The notes under the pieces were generated by a model. That model was not told where the DNA came from and ran no database searches. It saw only the letters and a program-made list of their open reading frames with translations. DNA of 63,511 bases, the filler included. It is 8 parts of 8 records of this genome, joined end to end, with 100 filler letters (N's around TTAATTAATTAA, not from the genome) between each part and the next. Parts side by side here need not be neighbours in the genome. Positions count along the whole stretch, not along the records: positions 38,559 to 42,029 come from SRR11831585_204; 7 more parts are not named here. The stretch is one strand, 5' to 3'. Below are positions 35,824-51,516 of this stretch, one piece after another (position 1 is the stretch's first letter; each line of letters begins with the position of its first letter). The position numbers and the translations under genes are program-made.

Positions 35824-37706
35824 AAATTGGCGCACGCCTTCAAAGCTATAGTGATCCCAATCAGGTTGAATTCTATACTTCGGGCCGCACTTCCAATGAA
35901 GCTGCCTTTCTTTATCAGCTTTTTGCCCGTGAATACGGGAGCAATAACTTTCCCGACTGCTCCAACATGTGCCATGAACCGACAAGCGTGGGTTTGGCAG
36001 CGAGTATCGGTGTAGGTAAAGGGACCGTGTTGCTGGAAGACTTTGAGAAGTGCGATTTAGTCATTTGCATTGGGCATAACCCTGGTACAAACCACCCTCG
36101 CATGCTGACTTCGTTGCGCGCTTTAGTGAAACGGGGAGCGAAAATGATCGCCATCAATCCTCTACAGGAACGTGGCCTGGAGCGATTTACCGCACCGCAA
36201 AACCCGTTTGAAATGCTGACGAACTCTGAGACTCAGTTGGCCAGTGCCTACTATAACGTGCGCATTGGTGGCGATATGGCGTTGCTCAAGGGGATGATGC
36301 GCCTGTTAATTGAGCGCGATGATGCTGCAAGCGCCGCAGGTCGGCCTTCATTGCTTGATGACGAGTTTATTCAAACGCATACCGTCGGCTTTGACGAGCT
36401 ACGCCGTGACGTTCTCAATTCCGAGTGGAAAGATATCGAACGTATTTCTGGACTAAGTCAGACACAAATCGCCGAACTGGCTGACGCATATGCCGCTGCC
36501 GAACGCACCATTATCTGTTACGGAATGGGGATCACTCAGCACGAACATGGTACCCAGAACGTACAGCAACTGGTCAATCTGCTGTTGATGAAAGGTAACA
36601 TTGGCAAGCCTGGTGCGGGTATCTGCCCACTACGTGGACACTCTAATGTACAGGGCGACCGAACCGTCGGTATCACCGAGAAACCGTCTGCAGAGTTTCT
36701 GGCTCGTCTGGGTGAGCGCTATGGCTTCACCCCACCTCATGCACCTGGACATGCTGCAATTGCCAGCATGCAAGCAATATGTACGGGGCAGGCTCGAGCA
36801 TTGATCTGCATGGGGGGCAATTTTGCGCTGGCAATGCCAGATCGGGAAGCGAGCGCTGTACCGTTAACGCAATTAGATTTGGCGGTACACGTAGCCACTA
36901 AGCTTAACCGCTCTCATCTGTTGACCGCACGGCATAGCTATATTCTGCCGGTCCTGGGACGTAGCGAGATTGACATGCAAAAAAACGGTGCGCAGGCGGT
37001 AACCGTTGAGGATTCAATGTCGATGATTCATGCCTCGCGTGGCGTGTTAAAACCCGCCGGTGTAATGCTGAAATCAGAGTGTGCAGTGGTCGCGGGAATC
37101 GCGCAGGCAGCACTACCCCAGAGCGTGGTAGCCTGGGAGTATCTGGTGGAAGATTATGATCGCATTCGCAATGACATTGAAGCTGTGCTGCCAGAGTTCG
37201 CCGACTATAACCAGCGCATCCGTCATCCCGGTGGTTTTCACCTGATAAATGCAGCTGCTGAAAGGCGCTGGATGACGCCGTCAGGTAAGGCTAATTTCAT
37301 TACCAGCAAAGGGCTGTTAGAAGATCCCTCTTCAGCGTTTAACAGTAAGCTGGTCATGGCGACAGTACGCAGCCACGATCAGTACAACACGACGATTTAT
37401 GGTATGGATGATCGCTATCGAGGGGTATTCGGTCAACGAGATGTGGTCTTTATGAGTGCTAAACAAGCTAAAATTTGCCGTGTAAAAAACGGCGAAAGAG
37501 TTAATCTTATTGCGCTTACGCCAGACGGTAAGCGCAGCTCACGCCGCATGGATAGATTAAAAGTGGTCATTTACCCTATGGCTGACCGCTCACTGGTGAC
37601 CTATTTTCCAGAATCGAATCACATGCTAACACTTGATAACCACGATCCATTAAGTGGCATTCCTGGCTATAAAAGTATTCCGGTTGAATTAGAACCATCA
37701 AATTAA
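35824..37706 (+). CDS. ydeP: Molybdopterin oxidoreductase YdeP (acid resistance), 5' truncated
   Basis: Frame open from contig start ([12 protein letters not shown]...PDCSNMCHE); [19 protein letters not shown]; followed by safA-ydeO. Confidence 0.93.
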
Positions 37707-37718
37707 TGCCTCTTCTCA

Positions 37719-37752
37719 TTTCTTCTGCTGTCATCCGCACAGCAGAAGAATT
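37719..37752. terminator. Hairpin downstream of ydeP
   Basis: ttcttctgctg...cagcagaagaa inverted repeat. Confidence 0.55.
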
Positions 37753-37824
37753 CCTCATTGACTATTATTTCGCAATTTGCTCACATGGATTAAATTAAAC
37801 TACATACTATAAGATATAAACTTC

Positions 37825-37842
37825 TGCCTACAGCTGTAAGAA
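37825..37842. promoter_or_regulatory. EvgA box upstream of safA-ydeO
   Basis: TGCCTACAGCTGTAAGAA fits the 18-bp TTCYTACA-N2-TGTARGAA inverted repeat. Confidence 0.75.
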
Positions 37843-37953
37843 ACTCCGCTCAGTACTGAAGCACCAGTCCTATTTCCTCTTTTCTCCAGCCTGTTATATT
37901 AAGCATACTGATTAACGATTTTTAACGTTATCCGCTAAATAAACATATTTGAA

Positions 37954-38150
37954 ATGCATGCGACCACAGTGAAAAACAAATCACGCAAAGAGACAACTAT
38001 AAAGAAATCATGTCTGCAATTGTGGTTGTCTTATTACTGACACTTACGTTGATAGCCATTTTTTCGGCAATTGATCAGCTGAGTATTTCAGAAATGGGTC
38101 GCATTGCAAGAGATCTTACACATTTCATTATCAATAGTTTGCAAGGCTGA
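37954..38150 (+). CDS. safA: Two-component connector SafA (B1500), with an apparent 1-bp deletion near 37978-37980
   Basis: MHATTVKNK, then in the other frame TQRDNYKEIMSAIVVVLLLTLTLIAIFSAIDQLSISEMGRIARDLTHFIINSLQG*; span 197 nt, one short of 198. Confidence 0.85.
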
Positions 38151-38224
38151 AAACAAACAGCAAATTATAAATATGAAATGTTAAAAAAGTATCGATAAAA
38201 ACTTTATTGTTTTAAGGAGATAAA

Positions 38225-38458
38225 ATGTCGCTCGTTTGTTCTGTTATATTTATTCATCATGCCTTCAACGCTAACATTTTAGATAAAGATTACGCCTTCT
38301 CTGACGGCGAGATCCTGATGGTAGATAACGCTGTTCGTACGCATTTTGAACCTTATGAGCGGCATTTTAAAGAGATCGGATTTACTGAAAATACCATTAA
38401 AAATATCTACAATGCACTAACATCCAGACAGTGACGGTGCCTGTTCCTGCGAAGTTTT
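38225..38458 (+). CDS. ydeO: AraC-family regulator YdeO, 3' truncated, with an apparent 1-bp deletion in the A-run at 38399-38403
   Basis: MSLVCSVIFIHHAFNANILDKDY N-terminus; the downstream YLQCTNIQTVTVPVPAKF continues in another frame. Confidence 0.88.
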
Positions 38459-38558: not shown

Positions 38559-38642
38559 AAAGAGTACACGTTGCTGTCGGGTTGTGCCATGTTTCGCAGA
38601 TGTATACGGAACTAGACTGCAAACTGATGGCTTTGTGTACAG

Positions 38643-41600
38643 GGCTCTCAGACGTGTGATAAGCTCTACGACAACCACCGAGGCACAGACACCACGCGTC
38701 AATGGCTGGGAGGAAATGGTGCTGGTTATGCAAGTGTGACGCTGGACTTGGGGTCTGTCATGAATATCGCACGAGTGGTATGTGCGCACAGCCAGTTGAG
38801 GTTTTTGGTGTTGAATGGAGTCTACGTCCTGCGTACTGTAGTCGAGTAGCAAGTATAGTGTTATTGTGGTGGGATAACGTTGTGTGTGCAGGTGCTCTAC
38901 CAATACAACTCAGCGCAACCGTATGGCATGGCACAGGTATGAACTCTTCCATGTTGGTGCCACCGTCCTCTATGATATTCTTCTTTCTTACCTCGTTCTT
39001 TCTCATGCACAGTATGTTCTGTATGGCACCACATCCGCGGGCACCCCCTACGAGAACGCCCTCACAGGCACCAACACGCTCTCAGCCCTGGACGGCTCCT
39101 CAGAAACACCTCTCGGAACACATGTTCTGACACGCAGCGCCACCTCTACTACAGGCACCGCCATTGAGTGTGTGCTGTGCAGCTCCGACAGCAGTTCCAT
39201 CGCAGCACTGTCCCCGCAGACAAGCATGGACAACTGTCAGTGTGTGTGGGGCAAAGCGAGGTGGCATGAACGGTGCGTCGTTGACAAAGTTCGTTCTCCT
39301 TGACGCGATTGCGTGCTCCTTTATTGCTGTGAGCAGGATTTGACCATGTATGTGCACAGCTGTTTGGGGCCTCTCCCTGCACCGGGGCTCTCTGCGGGCG
39401 GGATTCTAGCCGTGGGTACAAGTGTTAGCCCCACAGTCAACACGGATGTTACCGCCGAATTTGGTGCGCACGACTTCATGGCCACTGTGGATGCGTCGCT
39501 GATGTGATGATTCCTGTGTGTATAATGCAGATGACGCCGCTATTAATGTGCGCTACACGACGGATGGCAGCACACCCACAGCCTCCTCTGCTATTCTGAC
39601 CACGTACACGCCACCATCCCTTGCAACTACAACTGTGAAAGCAGTGGAGACACAAACCGGCAGACTGACAAGCGCGGTGACAACTGTGGGCTACACCATC
39701 TACGGGTCCCTTGCCACCACCGTCGAGCCGGCCACAGGCACCTACACCACTTCGGTCACACTCAGTACGTTGGGCACACCCAGAATTTGTCATCTCTAAC
39801 CTTGTCCTCCATGAGTTGCTGCTCTATGGATATGTCTCACGTGTTTGTGCGCCTTCCAGATATCACCTGTGCCATGTACCCGCCATCGTCCCAGCCTCTC
39901 ACCATCTACTACTCCACGGACGGCTCCGACCCCACTGTCGCGTCCCTTGTGTACTCGGGCAGCCCTGTACTGAGTGCCAGCAACGGTCTGACAGTGATCA
40001 CCGTGAAGGCCCTGTGTTCTGCGGTACGCCCAATTCTCATTTTTCTAATTTTTATTGTATGGTCGTCATACTCACCACCGATGTGCTTCCGTTCGCGCAC
40101 TGACTCTTTATTGTGTGTGCTGTGCAGCCATGGTACTTCAACAGCACCACAGCCACCACCACCTACACCATTCAGATGTACACGGAGCGTCCTGTCATCC
40201 ACCTCAATCAGACCTCTTACATGGATAACGGCGTTGTCAGCATGTCCTCAGCCACCTCAGGCGCCTCTATCTATTACAGTGTGGCTAACGGGCCCTCGAC
40301 TCTGTATACGGACACATTCTTGGTGCCGTGTGTGGGGCAGCTGTCCATCTGCAATGTCACACTCGATGCCACGGTACGAACGCTTAATGGACTGTCTTGA
40401 GTTGAGAATAACCGTTGTGGTAGGCCACCAAAACAAACTACCTGAACACCACCACCCGTTCATACGGTACTGTATTGGCATCGAAGTATATTCAGGTTCG
40501 TTCTGATGCAGTTTATTAGTTCTCATATTCAATGCCAAGCACATTCCCGCACTCTCGCCGTTTGGAGGAAGATACAGCCCATCAATATCGGTGACGATGA
40601 CAACGAGCCCAAACGCATCGTACGTTGCAAATATTGCACTATATAACCCGTTCCTTATAATCATGTATCTGATTATTATTTTAATTGCGTAATAGTGTTG
40701 CTCTGCGCTACACCACGGATGGTGCTCAACCAACTGCAAGTTCTCCATTATATTTTGGGACGCCTCTCAGTATTTCTTCAATTGGAAACAACACCATACG
40801 AGCCAGATACGAAGTCGTACGCTGTATTGCCATCGTGACACGACGTTATATAATCCCTACCCTTCGATGTAGATATTAGGCGGCACGATGTACCACTCTG
40901 ACGTTCAGACGGAGGTCTACATGCTGACGGGTACACTTCAGCTATTTGTTCTTCCAGTCAGCGGCGTGTATGAAGGGCGCGTCGATGTCAGTATCCGAAC
41001 ACGGCCTAATTTTCTTGTGATCTTGCAGTTCTATAATTTTTGAGTTTCCTTCACTTTTGTTTCAGATCTGACGTGCATCCAAAGCCATCCATCGGCGTAT
41101 CTTCCAACGATTTTATACAGCTTAAACGATTCAGTGAGTCCCAACAGCACGTACAGCTCCTACCCACTCACTCTGGCGTCACAAGGTGGCAATACGAACT
41201 ACAGCCTCACGGCTGTTTGCCGAGCGGTGCGCAGAACTATTGCATTTGGTCTAGTGATTGCTAATGCTGCGGATAACAGGAATTTTACAGCGATAGTGAC
41301 CAGAAGGCAGCACAGTACAGCCTGCTCGAGTATATCACAACACCTGTTATCACTTTGAATGAGACATACTACCTGGACAAAGCGATGGTCAACATTACGA
41401 CTGTGTCCGCGCCCGCGTCTATATACTACCGGGTTGACAGTGGATCAGACACTCTTTACATGAGTCTGTTTGAAATTCCCTGCTCGGGGACATTGTCGGT
41501 GTGCAATTTTACCATCACCGCGTGGGTACGCATCCTGTACGCACAGTGAAGTGTGTATTGATTTATTTATTTGTAGGCCAATCAAACCAACCACGTATCA

Positions 41601-42029
41601 TCGGGTATTGCGCAATCTCAAGCCCTAGTTTTCAACTCAGTGTATCAGCCGGTGTTCTCGCCCAACCCAGGGATTGTGGGTGCTACCCAGGCTGTTACGA
41701 TGACTGCTGTTTCGCACAGTAGGTAAGAACTAACCCCTTCTGATGTGCGGTCATTCCCAGCAGTAATGCTAACTCTGTTGATTCTGCAGCGTCACTATCA
41801 AGTACACTGTGAGTGGGGAGACGGTCAACTCAACATCACCCGTCTATGCGAGCGCAATATTGCTAAACCAGGTTGGCAACGTCACTGTTCAAGCGCGATT
41901 TTTCTCGGTACGTCGTTCCATGTGCTCATTATTCATAATGCTTTCGTTATCCAGACCATATCGGGTGTGACACACATGTCCGCTTTGACCCAAGCAGTGT
42001 ATTCCGTGTACGGATACCTCACACTGTCC
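38643..42029 (+). CDS. Intron-containing eukaryotic gene fragment (16 exons, 772 codons, open at both ends): discoidin/F5-8C-like domain, Cys-rich module and tandem chitobiase/FN3-associated-like repeats; probable surface glycoprotein
   Basis: Hand-built exons 38643-38777, 38892-38936, 39013-39272, 39360-39463, 39531-39764, 39860-40023, 40128-40373, 40424-40466, 40520-40619, 40696-40816, 40873-40990, 41066-41226, 41280-41525, 41577-41722, 41790-41907, 41955-42029 total 2316 nt with no stops. All introns are GT..AG, 47-114 nt. Repeated RYTTDGS.PT and IYYSTDGSDPT motifs. Confidence 0.85.
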
Positions 42030-42129
42030 NNNNNNNNNNNNNNNNNNNNNNNNNNNNNNNNNNNNNNNNNNNNTTAATTAATTAANNNNNNNNNNNNNNN
42101 NNNNNNNNNNNNNNNNNNNNNNNNNNNNN
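42030..42129. other. Artificial contig spacer
   Basis: 44 N + TTAATTAATTAA + 44 N. Confidence 0.99.
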
Positions 42130-44472
42130 ACATGAGCACAGATACAGCTTGTTGCATCTCTACGTGCAGCGAGGCCAGTGCCCTAGCGCGCTCCTCGTGT
42201 GCGTCCTGCAGCTGTGTGCGTAACTCGTGTTCCCGCGCCGCAGCTTGTCGTTCCGCCGTCCCCATCCGCCGCTCCAGGTCGCTTGTCAGCGCATCCGTCA
42301 GCTCCGCACGCACCGTGGACAGCTCACGAACATGCTGTTCACGCAGTGTTTGCAGCTCCTGTTGTGAGTGGCTGCGCTGGGTCTGCGCATCGGCCAATGC
42401 ACTGCGGACCTGCTCTTGCAGCGACGCCACTTGCACTGTCAGCTGTGCCCGCACCGTATGAGCCTCCTCCAGAGCGCTCTGCAGCTCAGAGGCTCGATTG
42501 TTCGACTCGGTCCTGAGCGCCTGGAGTGCGGCGGCTTGGTCTGCCTGCAGCGCGGCCACACGCTCAGCGCTCTCAGACCGCGCGGCCATATGTTTCTCAT
42601 GCAGCGCACGCAGATCCTGTTCGGCATGCTGGCGGGCTTGTGTCGCAGCCGCTAACAACGCAGATTCCTGCATGTTCTCCTCCGCCCACACCTGCTTCTG
42701 ATGCGCGAGTTCCTGCTGTGATTCCGCACGCAGTCGTTCAAGCTGTGCCACGGTGTGTGCATGTTCTGCCTCCGCATGCTGCAGACGCACAGACAATGCT
42801 GCACCGTCAGCCTGGGCTGTTCTCAGCTGCTCTTCTAGCTCACGCACACGCTCTCGAAGCACACCCACCTGTTGGTCGTAGTCCGCGGTGACTGTCACAA
42901 GCGAGGCACGTGTGTCTGTGAGCGATTGCGTGAGCGAGGCCACTTGCGCCACAAGAGCGCTCTTGGCCGCGGTGAGTTCCTCACTGGCATTGGTCGCTAC
43001 CGCAAGGTTTTCTGACACGCGTGCACAGTCGGCCCGCAGTGTGTCAGCGAGCGTGCGTGCGCTCTGTAGCTCTTGCTGCAGCTTGGCCGCTCTCACACCC
43101 AACAGATCCTTCGCATGCTGAGTCTCGTTCAGCTGCTTGTTCGAACGCTCGACTTCCGAGCGTGCACTCGCCGTTTCTGACCGGCTGACAGCCAGATCAG
43201 ACTGGATCTGCGCGTACGCTGCGGCAGCCGCACCCAACTGTGACTCGCATTCGCCCAAGCGTGCGCTGCATCGTTTGAGCTCCTCCGTGAGATTCTCCTG
43301 AGATACACGCACAGAAGCAGCATCCGCCTGCGCCCGAGATCGCTCGATTTCTGAGGTATCGAGCAAAGCTCGCAGCTCAGAAACCTGCTGCGTCAGCGCA
43401 CGATGCGATGTTTCATGGGCGGCAGCCTCCGACGCGCACTCTTCCACCTTGGCAGCCAACTGTGTCTCTAGCTGAGCCACGCGGCCCTCCGCGGTGAGGA
43501 GAGAGGTTTTGAGCGAGGACACCTGTTCGTTCAGAGCGCCCACCGCGGTCTCCAGATCGTGTACACGGGACTGGTGCGAAACACGCATCTCCTCCACGTT
43601 CCGGTGCGCAGAAGCCAAATCGGCTTGGACAACACCCAGACGCGCTGTTTCGCCGGCCAACTGCGCACCCAACTCTGACACACGCTGTTGAGCCGCGTCC
43701 AACTGCGCACGGAGCTCACTGAGTTGCTGTGTGTGCACGGCTGCACACTCGCTCCGTGCCGCACTGTGGCTCTCACGCACGCGGTCCATCTCGCTGTTGT
43801 GTTGCGACACAGCCGTACGCAGATCCTCCTCAGCATGCTCGCATCGCACCCGCACTGCATCCCGCTCACTACATGCAGCTGCAAGCTGGACGGCCAGGTC
43901 GGCTTGCTTCACTTGCAAACTCTCAAGCTGAGTCCGTAGCTGGGATTGCACCGCGGCGTGCTCCTGATCGTTGCGTGTGCGGTCTGCGGTGTGCGCATCC
44001 TCCAGGGCCTGTCTGCCTGTATGGTACGTCTCTGTCAACTGTACAAGCTTGTCCGCAGACTGGGACAGTTGTGACTGCAATTCTGAGACGCGAGCGTGTG
44101 CTGCTGCTAGCTCGGACACGAGGGTGGACCTCTGCGCGTTGAGCTCATCATTCTGCGCCCGAAGCTGCGCCGACAGAGACTCTGCGGCCGCAGTATGCGC
44201 GGCGAGAGTGCGATCCGCATGTTGCTGCAGCTCGGCGCATGCCAGATCATGGGCCGCACGCACCGTGTTCAGGTGTCCTGTGTGTTCGAGCAGCTGACGG
44301 TCTCGCTCTTGCACATCGGCACGCGCCGCAGCCAGCGCGCTCTGAAGAGAGGCGTTCTCAGCTTGGGCCTCTAACAAGCTGCGTCGCAACACGCCCGTCT
44401 CCTCGTCCCACACAGTCTGCCGCTGCCGCAGCGTGCTCTCGTGCTCAGCAGCTCGAGTTTCGAGCTCTGTCC
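42130..44472 (-). CDS. Long coiled-coil protein fragment (non-E. coli, probably eukaryotic), open at both ends
   Basis: One frame open across the whole contig (~780 aa); A/E/Q/R/L/S-rich with periodic leucines; no Pro seen. Confidence 0.85.
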
Positions 44473-44572: not shown

Positions 44573-46026
44573 CTGCTGGACTACATCGTTCAACGAAAGT
44601 GGCCTCTGGCGAAGCGGGCGGCATTACCCAGCACATTGGTGCATACCACGTTGAAACTGAAAACGGCATGATCACCTTCCTGGACACCCCGGGGCACGCC
44701 GCGTTTACTTCAATGCGTGCTCGTGGTGCGCAGGCAACGGACATCGTAGTCCTGGTTGTTGCTGCCGACGACGGTGTGATGCCGCAGACCATCGAAGCAA
44801 TCCAGCACGCGAAAGCGGCGCAGGTACCGGTGGTGGTTGCAGTGAACAAGATCGATAAACCAGAAGCTGATCCGGATCGCGTTAAGAACGAACTCTCCCA
44901 GTACGGCATCCTGCCGGAAGAGTGGGGCGGTGAAAGCCAGTTCGTACACGTATCTGCGAAAGCGGGTACCGGTATCGATGAACTGCTGGACGCTATCCTG
45001 CTGCAGGCGGAAGTTCTGGAGCTGAAAGCGGTACGTAAAGGTATGGCGAGCGGTGCGGTTATCGAATCCTTCCTCGATAAAGGTCGTGGTCCGGTTGCTA
45101 CCGTTCTGGTACGTGAAGGTACTCTGCACAAGGGCGATATCGTTCTGTGTGGCTTCGAATACGGTCGTGTTCGTGCGATGCGTAACGAACTGGGTCAGGA
45201 AGTGCTGGAAGCGGGTCCGTCCATTCCGGTGGAAATCCTCGGCCTGTCCGGCGTACCGGCTGCGGGTGATGAAGTTACCGTTGTACGTGACGAGAAGAAA
45301 GCGCGTGAAGTTGCACTCTATCGTCAGGGTAAATTCCGCGAAGTTAAACTGGCGCGTCAGCAGAAATCTAAACTCGAGAACATGTTCGCCAACATGACCG
45401 AAGGCGAAGTTCACGAAGTGAATATCGTCCTGAAGGCAGACGTACAGGGTTCTGTCGAAGCGATCTCCGACTCCTTGCTGAAACTGTCTACTGACGAAGT
45501 TAAAGTGAAGATCATCGGTTCTGGCGTAGGTGGTATCACCGAAACCGACGCCACCCTGGCTGCGGCGTCCAACGCCATCCTGGTTGGCTTTAACGTACGT
45601 GCTGATGCCTCTGCACGTAAAGTGATTGAAGCGGAAAGCCTGGATCTGCGTTACTACTCCGTCATCTATAACCTGATTGACGAAGTGAAAGCGGCGATGA
45701 GCGGTATGCTGTCTCCGGAACTGAAACAGCAGATTATCGGTCTGGCGGAAGTTCGTGACGTGTTCAAATCGCCGAAATTTGGTGCCATCGCAGGCTGTAT
45801 GGTTACCGAAGGTGTGGTTAAACGTCACAACCCGATCCGCGTTCTGCGTGACAACGTGGTTATCTACGAAGGCGAGCTGGAGTCCCTGCGCCGCTTCAAA
45901 GATGACGTTAACGAAGTCCGTAACGGTATGGAATGTGGTATCGGCGTTAAGAACTACAACGACGTCCGCACTGGCGATGTGATCGAAGTATTCGAAATCA
46001 TCGAGATCCAACGTACCATTGCTTAA
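44573..46026 (+). CDS. infB: Translation initiation factor IF-2, 5' truncated; apparent 1-bp deletion near 44586 at the contig edge
   Basis: [22 protein letters not shown] GTPase motifs; LLDY at 44573 is one base out of frame with RSTKVASG. Confidence 0.97.
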
Positions 46027-46041
46027 GGTTTTTAGGGTTCC

Positions 46042-46116
46042 ATGCGGGATAAGGCGTTTACGCTGCATCCGGCATGGATTGCCTGATGTGACGCTGGCGC
46101 GTCTTATCAGGTCAAC
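46042..46116. repeat. REP pair downstream of infB
   Basis: ggataaggcgtttacgctgcatccggca and tgcctgatgtgacgctggcgcgtcttatcagg. Confidence 0.85.
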
Positions 46117-46147
46117 GTGAACAGCCCTTCCACCTGAAATTAATTTT

Positions 46148-46173
46148 AAAAAGGGGCTAACAGCCCCTTTTTT
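46148..46173 (+). terminator. Intrinsic terminator between infB and rbfA
   Basis: aaaaaggggct-aac-agcccctttttt. Confidence 0.85.
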
Positions 46174-46189
46174 GTCAGGAGAATTTATT

Positions 46190-46591
46190 ATGGCGAAAGA
46201 ATTTGGTCGCCCGCAGCGCGTAGCGCAGGAAATGCAAAAAGAGATCGCTCTCATCCTGCAGCGTGAAATTAAAGATCCTCGCCTGGGCATGATGACCACC
46301 GTTTCCGGTGTCGAAATGTCTCGCGACCTGGCGTATGCCAAAGTATATGTGACGTTCCTCAACGACAAAGATGAAGACGCGGTTAAAGCGGGCATCAAAG
46401 CGTTGCAAGAAGCTTCTGGTTTCATCCGCAGCCTGCTGGGGAAAGCGATGCGCCTGCGTATCGTGCCGGAACTGACCTTCTTCTACGACAACTCTCTGGT
46501 TGAAGGGATGCGCATGTCAAACCTGGTGACCAGCGTGGTCAAACATGACGAAGAACGTCGTGTTAACCCGGACGACAGCAAGGAGGACTAA
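46190..46591 (+). CDS. rbfA: Ribosome-binding factor A
   Basis: 133 aa; [37 protein letters not shown] Shine-Dalgarno. Confidence 0.98.
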
Positions 46592-47535
46592 TGAGTCGTC
46601 CTCGTCGTCGCGGTCGCGACATTAACGGCGTTTTGTTGCTGGATAAACCTCAGGGTATGTCCAGCAACGATGCGCTGCAAAAAGTGAAACGTATATATAA
46701 CGCCAACCGTGCCGGGCATACCGGTGCGCTGGACCCGCTGGCGACCGGCATGTTGCCGATTTGCCTCGGGGAAGCGACGAAGTTTTCCCAGTATCTGCTG
46801 GACTCCGACAAACGCTATCGGGTCATTGCGCGTCTTGGACAGCGTACCGATACTTCTGATGCCGACGGACAGATCGTTGAAGAACGTCCGGTAACCTTTA
46901 GCGCAGAGCAGCTGGCAGCGGCACTGGATACTTTCCGTGGCGATATCGAACAGATCCCTTCGATGTATTCAGCACTGAAATATCAGGGCAAAAAACTGTA
47001 CGAATATGCGCGTCAGGGCATTGAAGTTCCGCGTGAAGCGCGTCCGATTACCGTTTATGAATTGCTGTTTATTCGCCATGAAGGCAATGAGCTGGAGCTG
47101 GAAATTCACTGCTCAAAAGGCACTTATATCCGCACCATCATTGATGACCTGGGTGAAAAACTCGGCTGTGGCGCGCATGTTATTTACCTGCGCCGTCTGG
47201 CGGTAAGTAAATATCCGGTTGAACGGATGGTGACCCTGGAGCACCTGCGTGAACTTGTTGAGCAAGCTGAACAGCAGGATATTCCAGCCGCGGAGTTACT
47301 TGATCCATTACTGATGCCAATGGACAGTCCAGCTTCGGACTATCCGGTGGTGAATCTTCCGTTAACGTCTTCTGTTTACTTCAAAAATGGTAACCCGGTT
47401 CGTACATCTGGTGCGCCACTGGAAGGACTGGTTCGCGTCACGGAAGGTGAGAACGGCAAATTTATCGGTATGGGCGAAATTGACGATGAAGGCCGCGTTG
47501 CGCCTCGTCGCCTGGTGGTTGAATACCCGGCGTAA
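46591..47535 (+). CDS. truB: tRNA pseudouridine 55 synthase
   Basis: [21 protein letters not shown]. Confidence 0.98.
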
Positions 47536-47546
47536 TGTTAACCGTC

Positions 47547-47575
47547 TTGCGATAACAGGTCGCTACGAGTAGAAT
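47547..47575 (+). promoter_or_regulatory. Sigma70 promoter of rpsO
   Basis: TTGCGA - 17 nt - TAGAAT. Confidence 0.7.
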
Positions 47576-47587
47576 ACTGCCGCTTAA

Positions 47588-47953
<366 letters not shown>

Positions 47954-47968
47954 TTCTTGCGAGTTTCA

Positions 47969-47997
47969 GAAAAGGGGGCCTGAGTGGCCCCTTTTTT
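47969..47997 (+). terminator. rpsO terminator (bidirectional-type hairpin)
   Basis: gaaaagggggcc-tgagt-ggcccctttttt. Confidence 0.85.
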
Positions 47998-48185
47998 CAA
48001 GCTGACGGCAGCAATTCACTGGAAACTAATGTATTGTTGCTATGAATGATCTTCCGTTGCAGAGGTTCGCGCGGCTAATGAGAGGCTTTACCCACATAGA
48101 GCTGGGTTAGGGTTGTCATTAGTCGCGAGGATGCGCAGAAGATCGGGTATTAACACCAGTGCCGTAAGGTACTGTCTAAGAAAGA
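47970..48185 (-). ncRNA. sraG: SraG small RNA antisense to the pnp leader (ends approximate)
   Basis: Position in the rpsO-pnp intergenic region, from knowledge of E. coli; ends cannot be derived from the sequence alone. Confidence 0.55.
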
Positions 48186-48199
48186 GAAAGGATATTACA

Positions 48200-50335
48200 T
48201 TGCTTAATCCGATCGTTCGTAAATTCCAGTACGGCCAACACACCGTGACTCTGGAAACCGGCATGATGGCTCGTCAGGCTACTGCCGCTGTTATGGTTAG
48301 CATGGATGACACCGCGGTATTCGTTACCGTTGTTGGCCAGAAAAAAGCCAAACCAGGTCAGGACTTCTTCCCACTGACCGTTAACTATCAGGAGCGTACC
48401 TACGCTGCTGGTCGTATCCCGGGTAGCTTCTTCCGTCGTGAAGGCCGCCCAAGCGAAGGCGAAACCCTGATCGCGCGTCTGATTGACCGCCCGATTCGCC
48501 CGCTGTTCCCGGAAGGCTTCGTCAACGAAGTTCAGGTTATCGCCACCGTGGTTTCTGTTAACCCGCAAGTTAACCCGGATATCGTCGCGATGATTGGTGC
48601 TTCCGCAGCGCTGTCTCTGTCTGGTATTCCGTTCAATGGCCCGATTGGTGCTGCCCGCGTAGGTTACATCAATGACCAGTACGTACTGAACCCGACTCAG
48701 GACGAGCTGAAAGAGAGCAAACTGGATCTGGTTGTTGCCGGTACTGAAGCCGCTGTACTGATGGTTGAATCTGAAGCTCAACTGCTGAGCGAAGACCAGA
48801 TGCTGGGCGCAGTAGTGTTCGGTCATGAACAACAGCAGGTTGTTATTCAGAACATCAATGAACTGGTGAAAGAAGCCGGTAAACCGCGTTGGGACTGGCA
48901 GCCGGAGCCGGTAAACGAAGCGCTAAACGCGCGCGTTGCTGCACTGGCTGAAGCTCGCCTGAGCGATGCTTACCGCATCACCGACAAACAAGAGCGTTAT
49001 GCGCAGGTTGATGTCATCAAATCTGAAACCATCGCGACGCTGCTTGCTGAAGACGAAACCCTGGACGAAAACGAACTGGGTGAAATTCTGCACGCGATCG
49101 AGAAAAACGTTGTTCGTAGCCGCGTACTGGCAGGCGAACCGCGTATCGACGGTCGTGAAAAAGATATGATCCGTGGTCTGGATGTGCGTACTGGCGTGCT
49201 GCCGCGTACTCACGGTTCTGCGCTGTTCACCCGTGGTGAAACGCAGGCGCTGGTTACCGCAACGCTGGGTACTGCTCGTGACGCGCAGGTTCTTGATGAA
49301 CTGATGGGCGAACGTACCGATACCTTCCTGTTCCACTACAACTTCCCTCCGTACTCCGTAGGCGAAACCGGCATGGTCGGTTCTCCGAAGCGTCGTGAAA
49401 TTGGTCACGGTCGTCTGGCGAAGCGCGGCGTGCTGGCAGTCATGCCGGATATGGACAAATTCCCGTACACCGTACGTGTTGTGTCTGAAATCACTGAATC
49501 CAACGGTTCCTCTTCTATGGCTTCCGTGTGCGGCGCGTCTCTGGCGCTGATGGACGCAGGTGTGCCGATCAAAGCTGCCGTTGCGGGTATCGCAATGGGT
49601 CTGGTGAAAGAAGGCGACAACTACGTTGTACTGTCTGACATTTTGGGCGACGAAGATCACCTGGGCGATATGGACTTCAAAGTTGCAGGTTCCCGCGACG
49701 GTATCTCTGCACTGCAGATGGATATCAAAATTGAAGGTATCACCAAAGAGATCATGCAGGTTGCGCTGAACCAGGCTAAAGGTGCGCGTCTGCATATCCT
49801 GGGCGTAATGGAACAGGCGATCAACGCGCCGCGTGGCGATATCTCTGAGTTCGCACCGCGTATCCATACCATCAAGATCAACCCGGACAAGATCAAAGAT
49901 GTTATCGGTAAAGGCGGTTCTGTAATCCGTGCTCTGACCGAAGAAACTGGCACCACCATCGAAATCGAAGATGACGGTACTGTGAAGATTGCAGCGACCG
50001 ACGGCGAGAAAGCGAAACATGCTATTCGTCGTATCGAAGAGATCACTGCAGAAATCGAAGTGGGCCGCGTCTACACTGGTAAAGTGACCCGTATCGTTGA
50101 CTTTGGCGCATTTGTTGCCATCGGCGGCGGTAAAGAAGGTCTGGTCCACATCTCTCAAATCGCTGACAAACGCGTTGAGAAAGTGACCGATTACCTGCAG
50201 ATGGGTCAGGAAGTACCGGTGAAAGTTCTGGAAGTTGATCGCCAGGGCCGTATCCGTCTGAGCATTAAAGAAGCGACTGAGCAGTCTCAACCTGCTGCAG
50301 CACCGGAAGCTCCGGCTGCTGAACAGGGCGAGTAA
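48200..50335 (+). CDS. pnp: Polynucleotide phosphorylase (TTG start)
   Basis: 711 aa; [29 protein letters not shown] (GKGG) and S1 domains. Confidence 0.99.
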
Positions 50336-50444
50336 GGTTGCCATTTGCCCTCCGCTGCGGCGGGGGGCGTTTTAACCGGGCAGGACGCCTTGTTAGCAAC
50401 CGGGAACAGGACGTTCATTCAACCGTGGTCTTCGGGAGTGGGAA

Positions 50445-51329
50445 ATGAAGCCTTTTTTGCGCTGGTGTTTCGTTGCGACAGCACTTACGCTTGCAGGATG
50501 CAGTAATACTTCCTGGCGTAAAAGTGAAGTCCTCGCGGTACCATTGCAACCGACTTTACAGCAGGAAGTGATTCTGGCACGTATGGAACAAATCCTTGCC
50601 AGTCGGGCTTTAACCGATGACGAACGCGCACAGCTTTTATATGAGCGCGGAGTGTTGTATGATAGTCTCGGTCTGAGGGCATTAGCGCGTAACGATTTTT
50701 CGCAAGCGCTGGCAATCCGACCGGATATGCCTGAAGTATTCAATTACTTAGGCATATATTTAACGCAGGCAGGCAATTTTGATGCTGCCTATGAAGCGTT
50801 TGATTCTGTACTTGAGCTTGATCCAACTTACAACTACGCGCACTTGAATCGCGGGATCGCATTATATTACGGCGGTCGTGACAAGTTAGCGCAAGATGAT
50901 CTGCTGGCGTTTTATCAAGACGATCCCAATGATCCTTTCCGTAGTCTGTGGCTTTATCTCGCCGAGCAGAAGCTCGATGAGAAGCAGGCTAAAGAAGTGT
51001 TGAAACAGCACTTCGAAAAATCGGATAAGGAACAGTGGGGATGGAACATTGTCGAGTTCTACCTGGGCAACATTAGCGAACAAACGTTAATGGAAAGGCT
51101 CAAGGCGGACGCAACGGATAACACCTCGCTCGCTGAGCATCTCAGTGAAACCAACTTCTATTTAGGTAAGTACTACCTAAGTCTGGGGGATTTGGACAGC
51201 GCCACGGCACTGTTCAAACTGGCGGTTGCCAACAACGTTCATAACTTTGTTGAGCACCGATACGCATTGTTGGAATTATCGCTCCTGGGCCAGGACCAAG
51301 ATGACCTGGCAGAATCGGACCAGCAATAG
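50445..51329 (+). CDS. nlpI: TPR lipoprotein NlpI
   Basis: Lipobox LAGC; TPR repeats; 294 aa. Confidence 0.98.
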
Positions 51330-51435
51330 CTGACGTACACATCAGCCCGTAATCTTTTTTGATTGCCATCACCTTAACGGGTGAGGGCGTTGTTGTTCGT
51401 TAATACACCTACTTTGAGCCGGTTCACACTTTTCA

Positions 51436-51516
51436 ATGAAAATTGCTGATCAATTTCATGATGAGTTATGTAGACTGGCCGCCATTAATTTTGAGGCACA
51501 CGTACTACATGGCTGA
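51436..51516 (+). CDS. yrbN: Small protein overlapping the deaD start
   Basis: [26 protein letters not shown], 26 aa. Confidence 0.75.

Follow-up and report, generated by a model that had tools for sequence, protein, structure and literature searches.

The stretch of DNA analysed here, a window of 63,511 nucleotides (nt), is not one piece of a genome: it consists of eight contigs joined by N..TTAATTAATTAA..N linkers. The fifth of them (positions 38559-42029, 3471 bases) is occupied by a gene fragment with 16 exons. In the explanation that we consider best, and think probable, this contig is nuclear DNA of a eukaryote, holding an internal piece of a real multi-exon gene for a surface or secreted protein built as a rod of CHB_HEX_C_1 domains. 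What we establish is the exon-intron structure, the family to which the stalk domains belong, a super-repeat within this stalk and the intron positions that its copies share. An initial annotation, made from the letters alone, had proposed a hidden intron-rich eukaryotic gene in this place, and this was borne out by the splice-site consensus, the base composition, the codon usage and the domain homology that continues across the junctions. The gene is real, and the exon-intron model of that annotation is essentially right.

The model comprises 15 GT..AG introns, the removal of which leaves 772 stop-free codons. As claimed, all 15 introns start with GT and end with AG, and the 16 exons add up to 2316 nt with no stop, compared with 28 and 18 stops when the spliced product is read in the other two frames. 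The introns measure 47-114 nt and each of them, when retained singly, adds between 1 and 22 stops. The frame runs off the contig at the 3' end. As the gene is cut at both contig ends, 16 exons are a lower bound, and any signal peptide, anchor, catalytic domain, start codon or stop codon lies outside view. A further intron had been suspected in exon 3 (at about 39127-39137), but the segment 39021-39137 is exon-like, with 14% T and 40% C. At the other end, GTACAC at 38564, five bases into the contig, fits the donor pattern of the gene; these five bases may be the tail of an upstream exon, and the 79 nt from there to 38642 an intron. The parts of the gene are given below with the evidence for each; codon log-odds refer to the proposed frame and, after "versus", to the other two, and "own profile" is the domain profile described further on.

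38559..38642, + strand: 3' part of an upstream intron, ending in ..TGTGTACAG (in-frame stops upstream of 38625; YAG acceptor at 38640-38642)
38643..38777, + strand: exon 1, 45 codons, core of a discoidin-like stretch (codon log-odds +6.1 versus -5.3 and -35.0)
38892..38936, + strand: exon 2, 15 codons (only open GT/AG pair within ±24 nt; codon log-odds +6.1)
39013..39272, + strand: exon 3, remaining discoidin-like stretch and Cys-rich spacer (codon log-odds +14.4 versus -27.9 and -45.6)
39360..39463, + strand: exon 4, last Cys of the spacer and start of domain 1 (own-profile envelope of domain 1 from residue 166)
39531..39764, + strand: exon 5, most of domain 1 (type A) and start of domain 2 (Pfam)
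39860..40023, + strand: exon 6, core of domain 2 (type B) (Pfam)
40128..40373, + strand: exon 7, rest of domain 2 followed by most of domain 3 (type C) (own profile, domain 3 independent E-value, i-E, 2.5e-9)
40424..40466, + strand: exon 8, a 43-nt micro-exon with the last strand of domain 3 (aligns to the last strand of the profile)
40520..40619, + strand: exon 9, start of domain 4 (type A) (own profile, domain 4, residues 420-507, i-E 1.9e-13)
40696..40816, + strand: exon 10, core of domain 4 (Pfam)
40873..40990, + strand: exon 11, rest of domain 4, then the beginning of domain 5 (type B) (own profile)
41066..41226, + strand: exon 12, core of domain 5 (own profile, i-E 1e-7; flanking introns at alignment columns shared with domain 2)
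41280..41525, + strand: exon 13, rest of domain 5 followed by most of domain 6 (type C) (own profile, i-E 5.2e-12)
41577..41722, + strand: exon 14, rest of domain 6, then the beginning of domain 7 (type A) (own profile)
41790..41907, + strand: exon 15, core of domain 7 (Pfam CHB_HEX_C_1)
41955..42029, + strand: exon 16, rest of domain 7, then the opening residues of an eighth (continues past the contig end)

Such a model could be an artefact: GT..AG pairs in DNA that is non-coding or decayed may by chance leave an open path, or the sequence may be a dead pseudogene. As a control, the fewest GT..AG jumps (40-120 nt, with exons of at least 30 nt) that cross the stretch without a stop were determined for both strands and for 40 mononucleotide shuffles. 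The real + strand could be crossed with as few as 10 jumps and the reverse strand with 13, while 31 of the 40 shuffles were crossable with 13-20 jumps and nine were uncrossable. That shuffles can usually be crossed speaks for an artefact, as does a 319-amino acid (aa) unspliced open frame that overlaps exons 5-8. We take the gene as real because features that had not been selected in drawing up the model exceed chance. GTRYG donors are present in 12 of the 15 introns, compared with 42 of the 264 GT sites in the contig (a background of 16%; binomial P 7e-8), and YAG acceptors in all 15, compared with 101 of the 159 AG sites (P 1e-3); G stands at donor position +5 in 13 introns and at position -1 in 11. 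Exons have 53.9% guanine plus cytosine (GC) and 22% T, introns 43.7% GC and 36% T. The ends, the shared donor and acceptor consensus and the distinct intron composition that characterize spliceosomal GT-AG introns were all found. Codon usage was evaluated with a table trained on the stalk exons, by which the scores for exons 4-16 are partly circular; the held-out exons 1-3 scored +24.7 bits in the proposed frame versus -37.6 and -86.8 in the other two, and the introns gave negative scores in all three frames.

The 319-aa frame (39547-40503, + strand), the longest unspliced one, extends from exon 5 to exon 8 and takes in introns 5, 6 and 7; it agrees with the proposed frame in exon 6 and departs from it in exons 5 and 7. 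It was rejected as a real gene, with a Pfam match only where it coincides with exon 6, and is probably a by-product of codons rich in Thr, Ser, Ala and Pro. The other rival open frames, including one of 169 aa on the - strand, gave no Pfam match. A splice-site consensus far above background, distinct exon and intron compositions and fitting held-out codons stand against an artefact, as do the seven full-length domain matches that cross junctions and the best scores of the proposed junctions, both described below; the lack of any stop or frameshift in 772 codons argues against an old pseudogene. We regard the artefact reading as largely refuted and very unlikely.

The domain family of the stalk was recognized from 14 exon pieces scanned singly against Pfam (exons 2 and 8 were left out as too short), with gathering cut-offs of 22 bits for CHB_HEX_C_1 (PF13290), 23 bits for Fn3_assoc (PF13287) and 28.2 bits for F5_F8_type_C (PF00754). 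CHB_HEX_C_1 lay above its cut-off in exons 5, 6, 10 and 15 (30.5, 37.8, 35.1 and 24.0 bits) and below it in exons 7 and 13 (15.2 and 16.7 bits); Fn3_assoc lay above its own in exons 5, 6 and 10 (25.4, 31.1 and 28.2 bits) and below it in exon 15 (20.3 bits). Since the matches of both families always overlap and those of Fn3_assoc score lower, the two are the same domain here. We also built a 96-position profile, distinct from Pfam's model, from 2068 aligned domain rows taken from the repeats of mostly bacterial relatives. On the spliced product it scored 163.2 bits and found seven domains (i-E 1e-7 to 5e-16) at residues 175-245, 245-344, 336-409, 420-507, 512-605, 599-692 and 683-765, which stand head to tail over residues 166-770, cover most of the model and span two or three exons each. 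The proposed stalk of CHB_HEX_C_1/Fn3_assoc repeats is thus confirmed by Pfam in four of the 14 pieces and by a profile that tiles seven domains, and the announced seven or so repeats of 85-90 aa correspond to seven complete domains plus the first residues of an eighth.

The same profile was used on the junctions: every in-frame, stop-free GT/AG pair within ±24 nt was scored, which gave one to five pairs per intron including the proposed one. The proposed junctions scored best in 11 of the 12 stalk introns, introns 7 and 8 among them. In intron 10 the proposed pair came second by 0.5 bit, but its donor (40817 vs 40814) agrees better with the consensus; the stalk profile offers no means of choosing between junctions for introns 1-3. 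A six-frame scan of the whole window found seven matching frames among 1438 (of at least 25 aa), all on the + strand between 39503 and 41967, and no uninterrupted frame spans more than one domain. An AlphaFold2 prediction on exon 13 (a partial domain, three sequences) reached a predicted local distance difference test score of 41 and is uninformative on the fold; this attempt failed because no complete domain lies within one exon.

Another aspect of the stalk is its internal repetition. Self-BLAST of the product shows that its sequence recurs about 263 residues further on: residues 166-420 align to 426-684 and residues 422-508 to 686-771, and the best segment pair has 42% identity (E 1e-21). 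The domain order is A-B-C-A-B-C-A, followed by the first residues of another domain at the contig end; domains of the same type are 30-43% identical in pairs, and exon 13 is 40% identical to exon 7. Three copies, the last one incomplete, were delimited:

39382..40542, + strand: super-repeat 1 (A1-B1-C1), residues 155-418 (self-BLAST)
40543..41642, + strand: super-repeat 2 (A2-B2-C2), residues 419-681 (self-BLAST, domain alignment and matching Cys pairs)
41643..42029, + strand: super-repeat 3, cut off (A3 and start of B3) (self-BLAST and domain alignment)

The introns recur together with the domains. In type A, all three copies have an intron just before the strand leading into the Y-T-T-D-G motif, and two copies have a further one behind the next strand. 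Both copies of type B carry two introns at identical alignment columns, and both copies of type C carry one after the ..T-x-x-A-[TW] strand. Only the intron after micro-exon 8 lacks a counterpart in the other super-repeat. These recurring positions are as expected from the tandem duplication of a cassette that already bore introns, and they would be hard to account for were the introns imaginary. The Cys pairs correspond between super-repeats as well, namely 263/312 and 527/575 in type B, and 382/389 and 645/652 in type C. Apparently, the three-domain unit (A, B and C; about 263 aa) was duplicated in tandem as DNA once the introns were present, so that this internal duplication would have copied exons and introns together.

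The first 150 residues or so are less clear. An F5/8 type C (discoidin) tip had been proposed for them, and a likeness at the level of motifs does stand out from chance, while membership in the family was not reached. Exon 1 shares with F5/8 type C domains (PF00754) the pattern T-x3-W ... D-L-G ... hydrophobic strand; the C-terminal half has no confident alignment. Against Pfam F5_F8_type_C, exon 1 scored 12.7 bits (E 0.14, profile positions 14-50 of 127), compared with the cut-off of 28.2. A discoidin profile of our own was built from 21 bacterial domains, after three of 26 PF00754 matches had been dropped as coming from unpublished genomes and two as mis-framed; on the spliced N-terminus it gave 13.4 bits, at residues 16-54 only, versus 9.5 for the best of 2000 shuffles. 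With hhalign, the N-terminus and the discoidin profile aligned over 86 columns (probability 30%, E 5e-4). A discoidin or lectin tip on the stalk is accordingly possible but unproven. The Cys-rich stretch that follows has Cys at residues 113, 116, 135 and 137 in exon 3 and at residue 148 in exon 4. It had been compared with an ephrin-receptor-like/GCC module (Ephrin_rec_like/GCC2_GCC3, PF07699), a resemblance that was not recovered in exon 3 in the Pfam scan at E <= 1, where the fifth Cys, in exon 4, falls outside the scanned piece. Exons 1 and 3 found no relatives in homologue searches among longer proteins.

As for the kind of protein encoded, the fragment of 772 residues consists of a stretch of about 100 residues that weakly resembles a galactose-binding/discoidin module, then a spacer with five Cys, and then a rod of at least seven CHB_HEX_C_1 domains. 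There are 17 N-x-S/T sequons where the composition predicts 9.5, and Ser plus Thr make up 27% of the residues. Together with the conserved Cys pairs, these values would suit a secreted protein that is glycosylated and carries disulphide bonds. Since types B and C carry Cys pairs, N-x-S/T sites are in excess, Ser and Thr are abundant and the bacterial kin are extracellular, the product is most likely an ordinary modular extracellular protein, i.e. a secreted or surface glycoprotein. In such a protein the stalk could act as a rigid glycosylated spacer presenting the N-terminal part away from the cell, and this N-terminal part, possibly sugar-binding, might have a role in adhesion to glycans or in their recognition. 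The lectin-tipped adhesin for prey recognition that the initial annotation envisaged would be a conjecture beyond this. We found no close relative of the gene except an exon-like sequence of 84 aa, P0148, described below. With its source organism named, the gene could serve to date intron gain against domain duplication, and it could show whether stalk proteins of this type serve adhesion to bacteria or to glycans.

A different possibility is that the fragment belongs to a secreted carbohydrate-active enzyme, as its non-catalytic tail, and that the catalytic domain (e.g. a glycoside hydrolase) would be encoded in the 5' part outside the contig; the discoidin-like stretch and the CHB_HEX_C_1 domains would then be the sugar-binding and spacer modules of the enzyme. 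In bacterial relatives the repeats do adjoin GH79 C-terminal, polysaccharide deacetylase, beta-1,3-glucanase and formylglycine-generating enzyme domains, according to Pfam lists and source names, and F5_F8_type_C occurs alongside the repeats in P0064 and P0078. Moreover, the best match of exon 5 in the PDB by sequence (8ayr_A, chain residues 515-561) falls in a fucosidase with a linker domain and a CBM32. This match, with E 0.58 (the next one had 0.63), is not significant. As an excerpt of the report on it describes, 8AYR is a GH29 fucosidase of Akkermansia muciniphila that has a catalytic domain, a galactose-binding-like domain, a two-sheet linker (aa 490-571) and a CBM32 (PMC10067855). Much as the fragment may do, it joins a galactose-binding-like/CBM32 (F5/8 type C) module to a small beta domain of two sheets, with which exon 5 has a weak alignment; it differs in having one linker domain and a catalytic domain, whereas the fragment has at least seven repeats and nothing catalytic in view. 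The match may be taken as a lead, not a test, both for the fold and for the enzyme-tail explanation. At least seven consecutive repeats are more typical of stalk and surface proteins than of enzymes, which have one or two; none of the seven top repeat-bearing matches has a catalytic domain (Pfam, E <= 0.001); and the discoidin-like module lies N-terminal of the stalk, with nothing catalytic across 772 residues. We consider the enzyme tail a live rival, but an unlikely one.

The relatives of the stalk were searched in two ways. Exon 5 retrieved 93 relatives (E <= 1e-3, from 1150 candidates), all long repeat proteins; those listed with an organism or function name are all of bacterial type, e.g. 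Hyalangium, Anaerocolumna and Dactylosporangium, and in most of the relatives single repeats show 36-59% identity to exon 5. A profile of exons 7 and 13 retrieved 620 representatives among 1.84 billion, 118 of them at E <= 1e-10. Among the eight top matches of this profile that were examined, seven carry 9-19 CHB_HEX_C_1 stretches beside domains such as RCC1 and the Por secretion tail. The bacterial multi-repeat proteins P0094 (10 repeats), P0096 (19 repeats) and P0001 belong to the same domain family and form long head-to-tail arrays, which have in common with this gene the Y-T-T-D-G-s-x-P motif and domains of about 85-95 aa. Unlike these arrays, the gene has 15 spliceosomal introns, three diverged domain types in the fixed order A-B-C, conserved Cys pairs in types B and C, and a type C that scores below the Pfam cut-off. 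A PDB search by sequence with P0094 gave no match. The gene is a small and clean case of an Ig-like module of bacterial type put to use in a eukaryotic gene rich in introns.

The eighth top match, P0148, is an 84-aa open reading frame (ORF) on a public contig of 1055 bp, 41% identical to exon 13. Like exon 13, it ends at the ..A-W exon boundary, and it then continues with V-R, as a GTNCG donor read through would give. With exons 7 and 13 it shares 19 invariant columns, among them the two Cys and N-x-T. Of the 247 proteins collected, the only one with the C-x(6)-C-N-x-T signature of type C is P0148. Only a single exon of it is known, and its sequence differs from that of this gene, so it comes from another organism or is a paralogue. 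No related loci appeared in scans of metagenome, genome and viral contigs, and in the literature searched, which comprised the articles without their supplementary files, we found no account of eukaryotic proteins of this build; judging by title and abstract, the literature that names CHB_HEX_C_1 or Fn3_assoc concerns bacteria or viruses.

This distribution raises the question of whether the DNA could be bacterial, phage or giant-virus DNA instead of that of a cellular eukaryote. The domain family is overwhelmingly bacterial, as are in type all the named relatives of exon 5; seven of the eight top matches are long arrays with RCC1 or the Por secretion tail, which we read as bacterial; and the assembly is otherwise E. 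coli-like in the contigs checked. On the other hand, 15 spliceosomal-type introns that lie within 3.4 kb and share a coherent donor consensus are out of keeping with bacteria or phages, there is no uninterrupted frame beyond one domain, and neither 5,426 E. coli genomes nor a scan of viral contigs gave a match. We hold a prokaryotic or viral source to be extremely improbable. A bolder form of the eukaryotic explanation supposes an unsampled lineage with a surface-protein family made wholly of CHB_HEX_C_1, a domain nearly confined to bacteria, that would have arisen by bacterial gene transfer, colonisation by introns, divergence into three types and amplification of the cassette. We find this conceivable, though doubtful. 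If it were true, such a eukaryotic family would have been met for the first time in two sequences, the present fragment and P0148, and type C (C-x6-C-N-x-T) would be a domain type diverged beyond the Pfam cut-off.

To return to the reading of the contig as a eukaryotic gene for an extracellular rod protein, several points weigh against it. The open spliced frame by itself is not above chance, and the gene model is drawn from genomic sequence. No single exon holds a full domain, and the continuity of the domains across the junctions appears from our own profile. The discoidin-like module falls under every formal threshold, and the Cys-rich stretch of exon 3 matches no Pfam family at E <= 1. With both gene ends outside the contig, the extracellular location is indirect, suggested by composition, Cys pairs and kinship. 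Finally, the sole possible eukaryotic relative is P0148, which is itself presumed to be eukaryotic.

It remains to place the contig within the window, which is composed as follows:

1-3380: MFS (major facilitator superfamily) transporter (Pfam)
3481-8298: citrate synthase, PrpD and AMP-binding enzyme (Pfam)
8399-35723: dense series of long ORFs (seen in the ORF view only, outside the Pfam and BLAST checks)
35824-38458: molybdopterin oxidoreductase (Pfam); the ydeP-ydeO-safA acid-resistance region of E. coli
38559-42029: the gene fragment
42130-44472: a 761-aa frame on the - strand
44573-61145: IF-2 (Pfam)
61246-63511: a 397-aa ORF on the + strand

The four contigs checked by Pfam or BLAST have E. 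coli or bacterial content; the ydeP-ydeO-safA region found a match in 5,386 of the 5,426 complete E. coli genomes searched, with a best identity of 99.9%, a value reached by many strains. The contig with the gene fragment had no match among these 5,426 genomes, and the contigs 42130-44472 and 61246-63511 were likewise unmatched in them. The same three contigs had no match in G001, the nearest genome, which has 71% of the window's sampled 31-letter words; these blanks say little, because the ydeP contig, near-universal in E. coli, is also unmatched there. An Rfam scan of 38559-44472 gave no match. As part of the whole explanation favoured above, and with the same good probability, the contig 38559-42029 would be eukaryotic nuclear DNA co-assembled with E. 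coli, or a contaminant. At least three short contigs (38559-42029, 42130-44472 and 61246-63511) are foreign to the surrounding E. coli content and read as eukaryotic; for 38559-42029, the initial annotation had overlooked this foreign origin. The window thus mixes genomes, and because of these foreign contigs gene calls made on them by bacterial rules are meaningless.

The contig 42130-44472, with 62% GC, has a single uninterrupted frame of 761 aa (- strand, 42130-44413) that leaves the contig. This frame has no Pfam family above cut-off; its nearest ESM Atlas clusters, at low recognition values, are of coiled-coil proteins, mostly from eukaryotes (CENPF, HMMR and golgin fragments). The contig is probably another piece of eukaryotic DNA, which need not come from the same organism as the gene fragment, since it is intronless and has a higher GC content. 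The contig 61246-63511 has an ORF of 397 aa (+ strand, 61273-62466) with no Pfam family and no PDB relative; its ESM Atlas neighbours are WD40/beta-propeller-like eukaryotic clusters, weak and of low recognition. The frames located 3' of this ORF are rich in Cys, Val, Thr and His.

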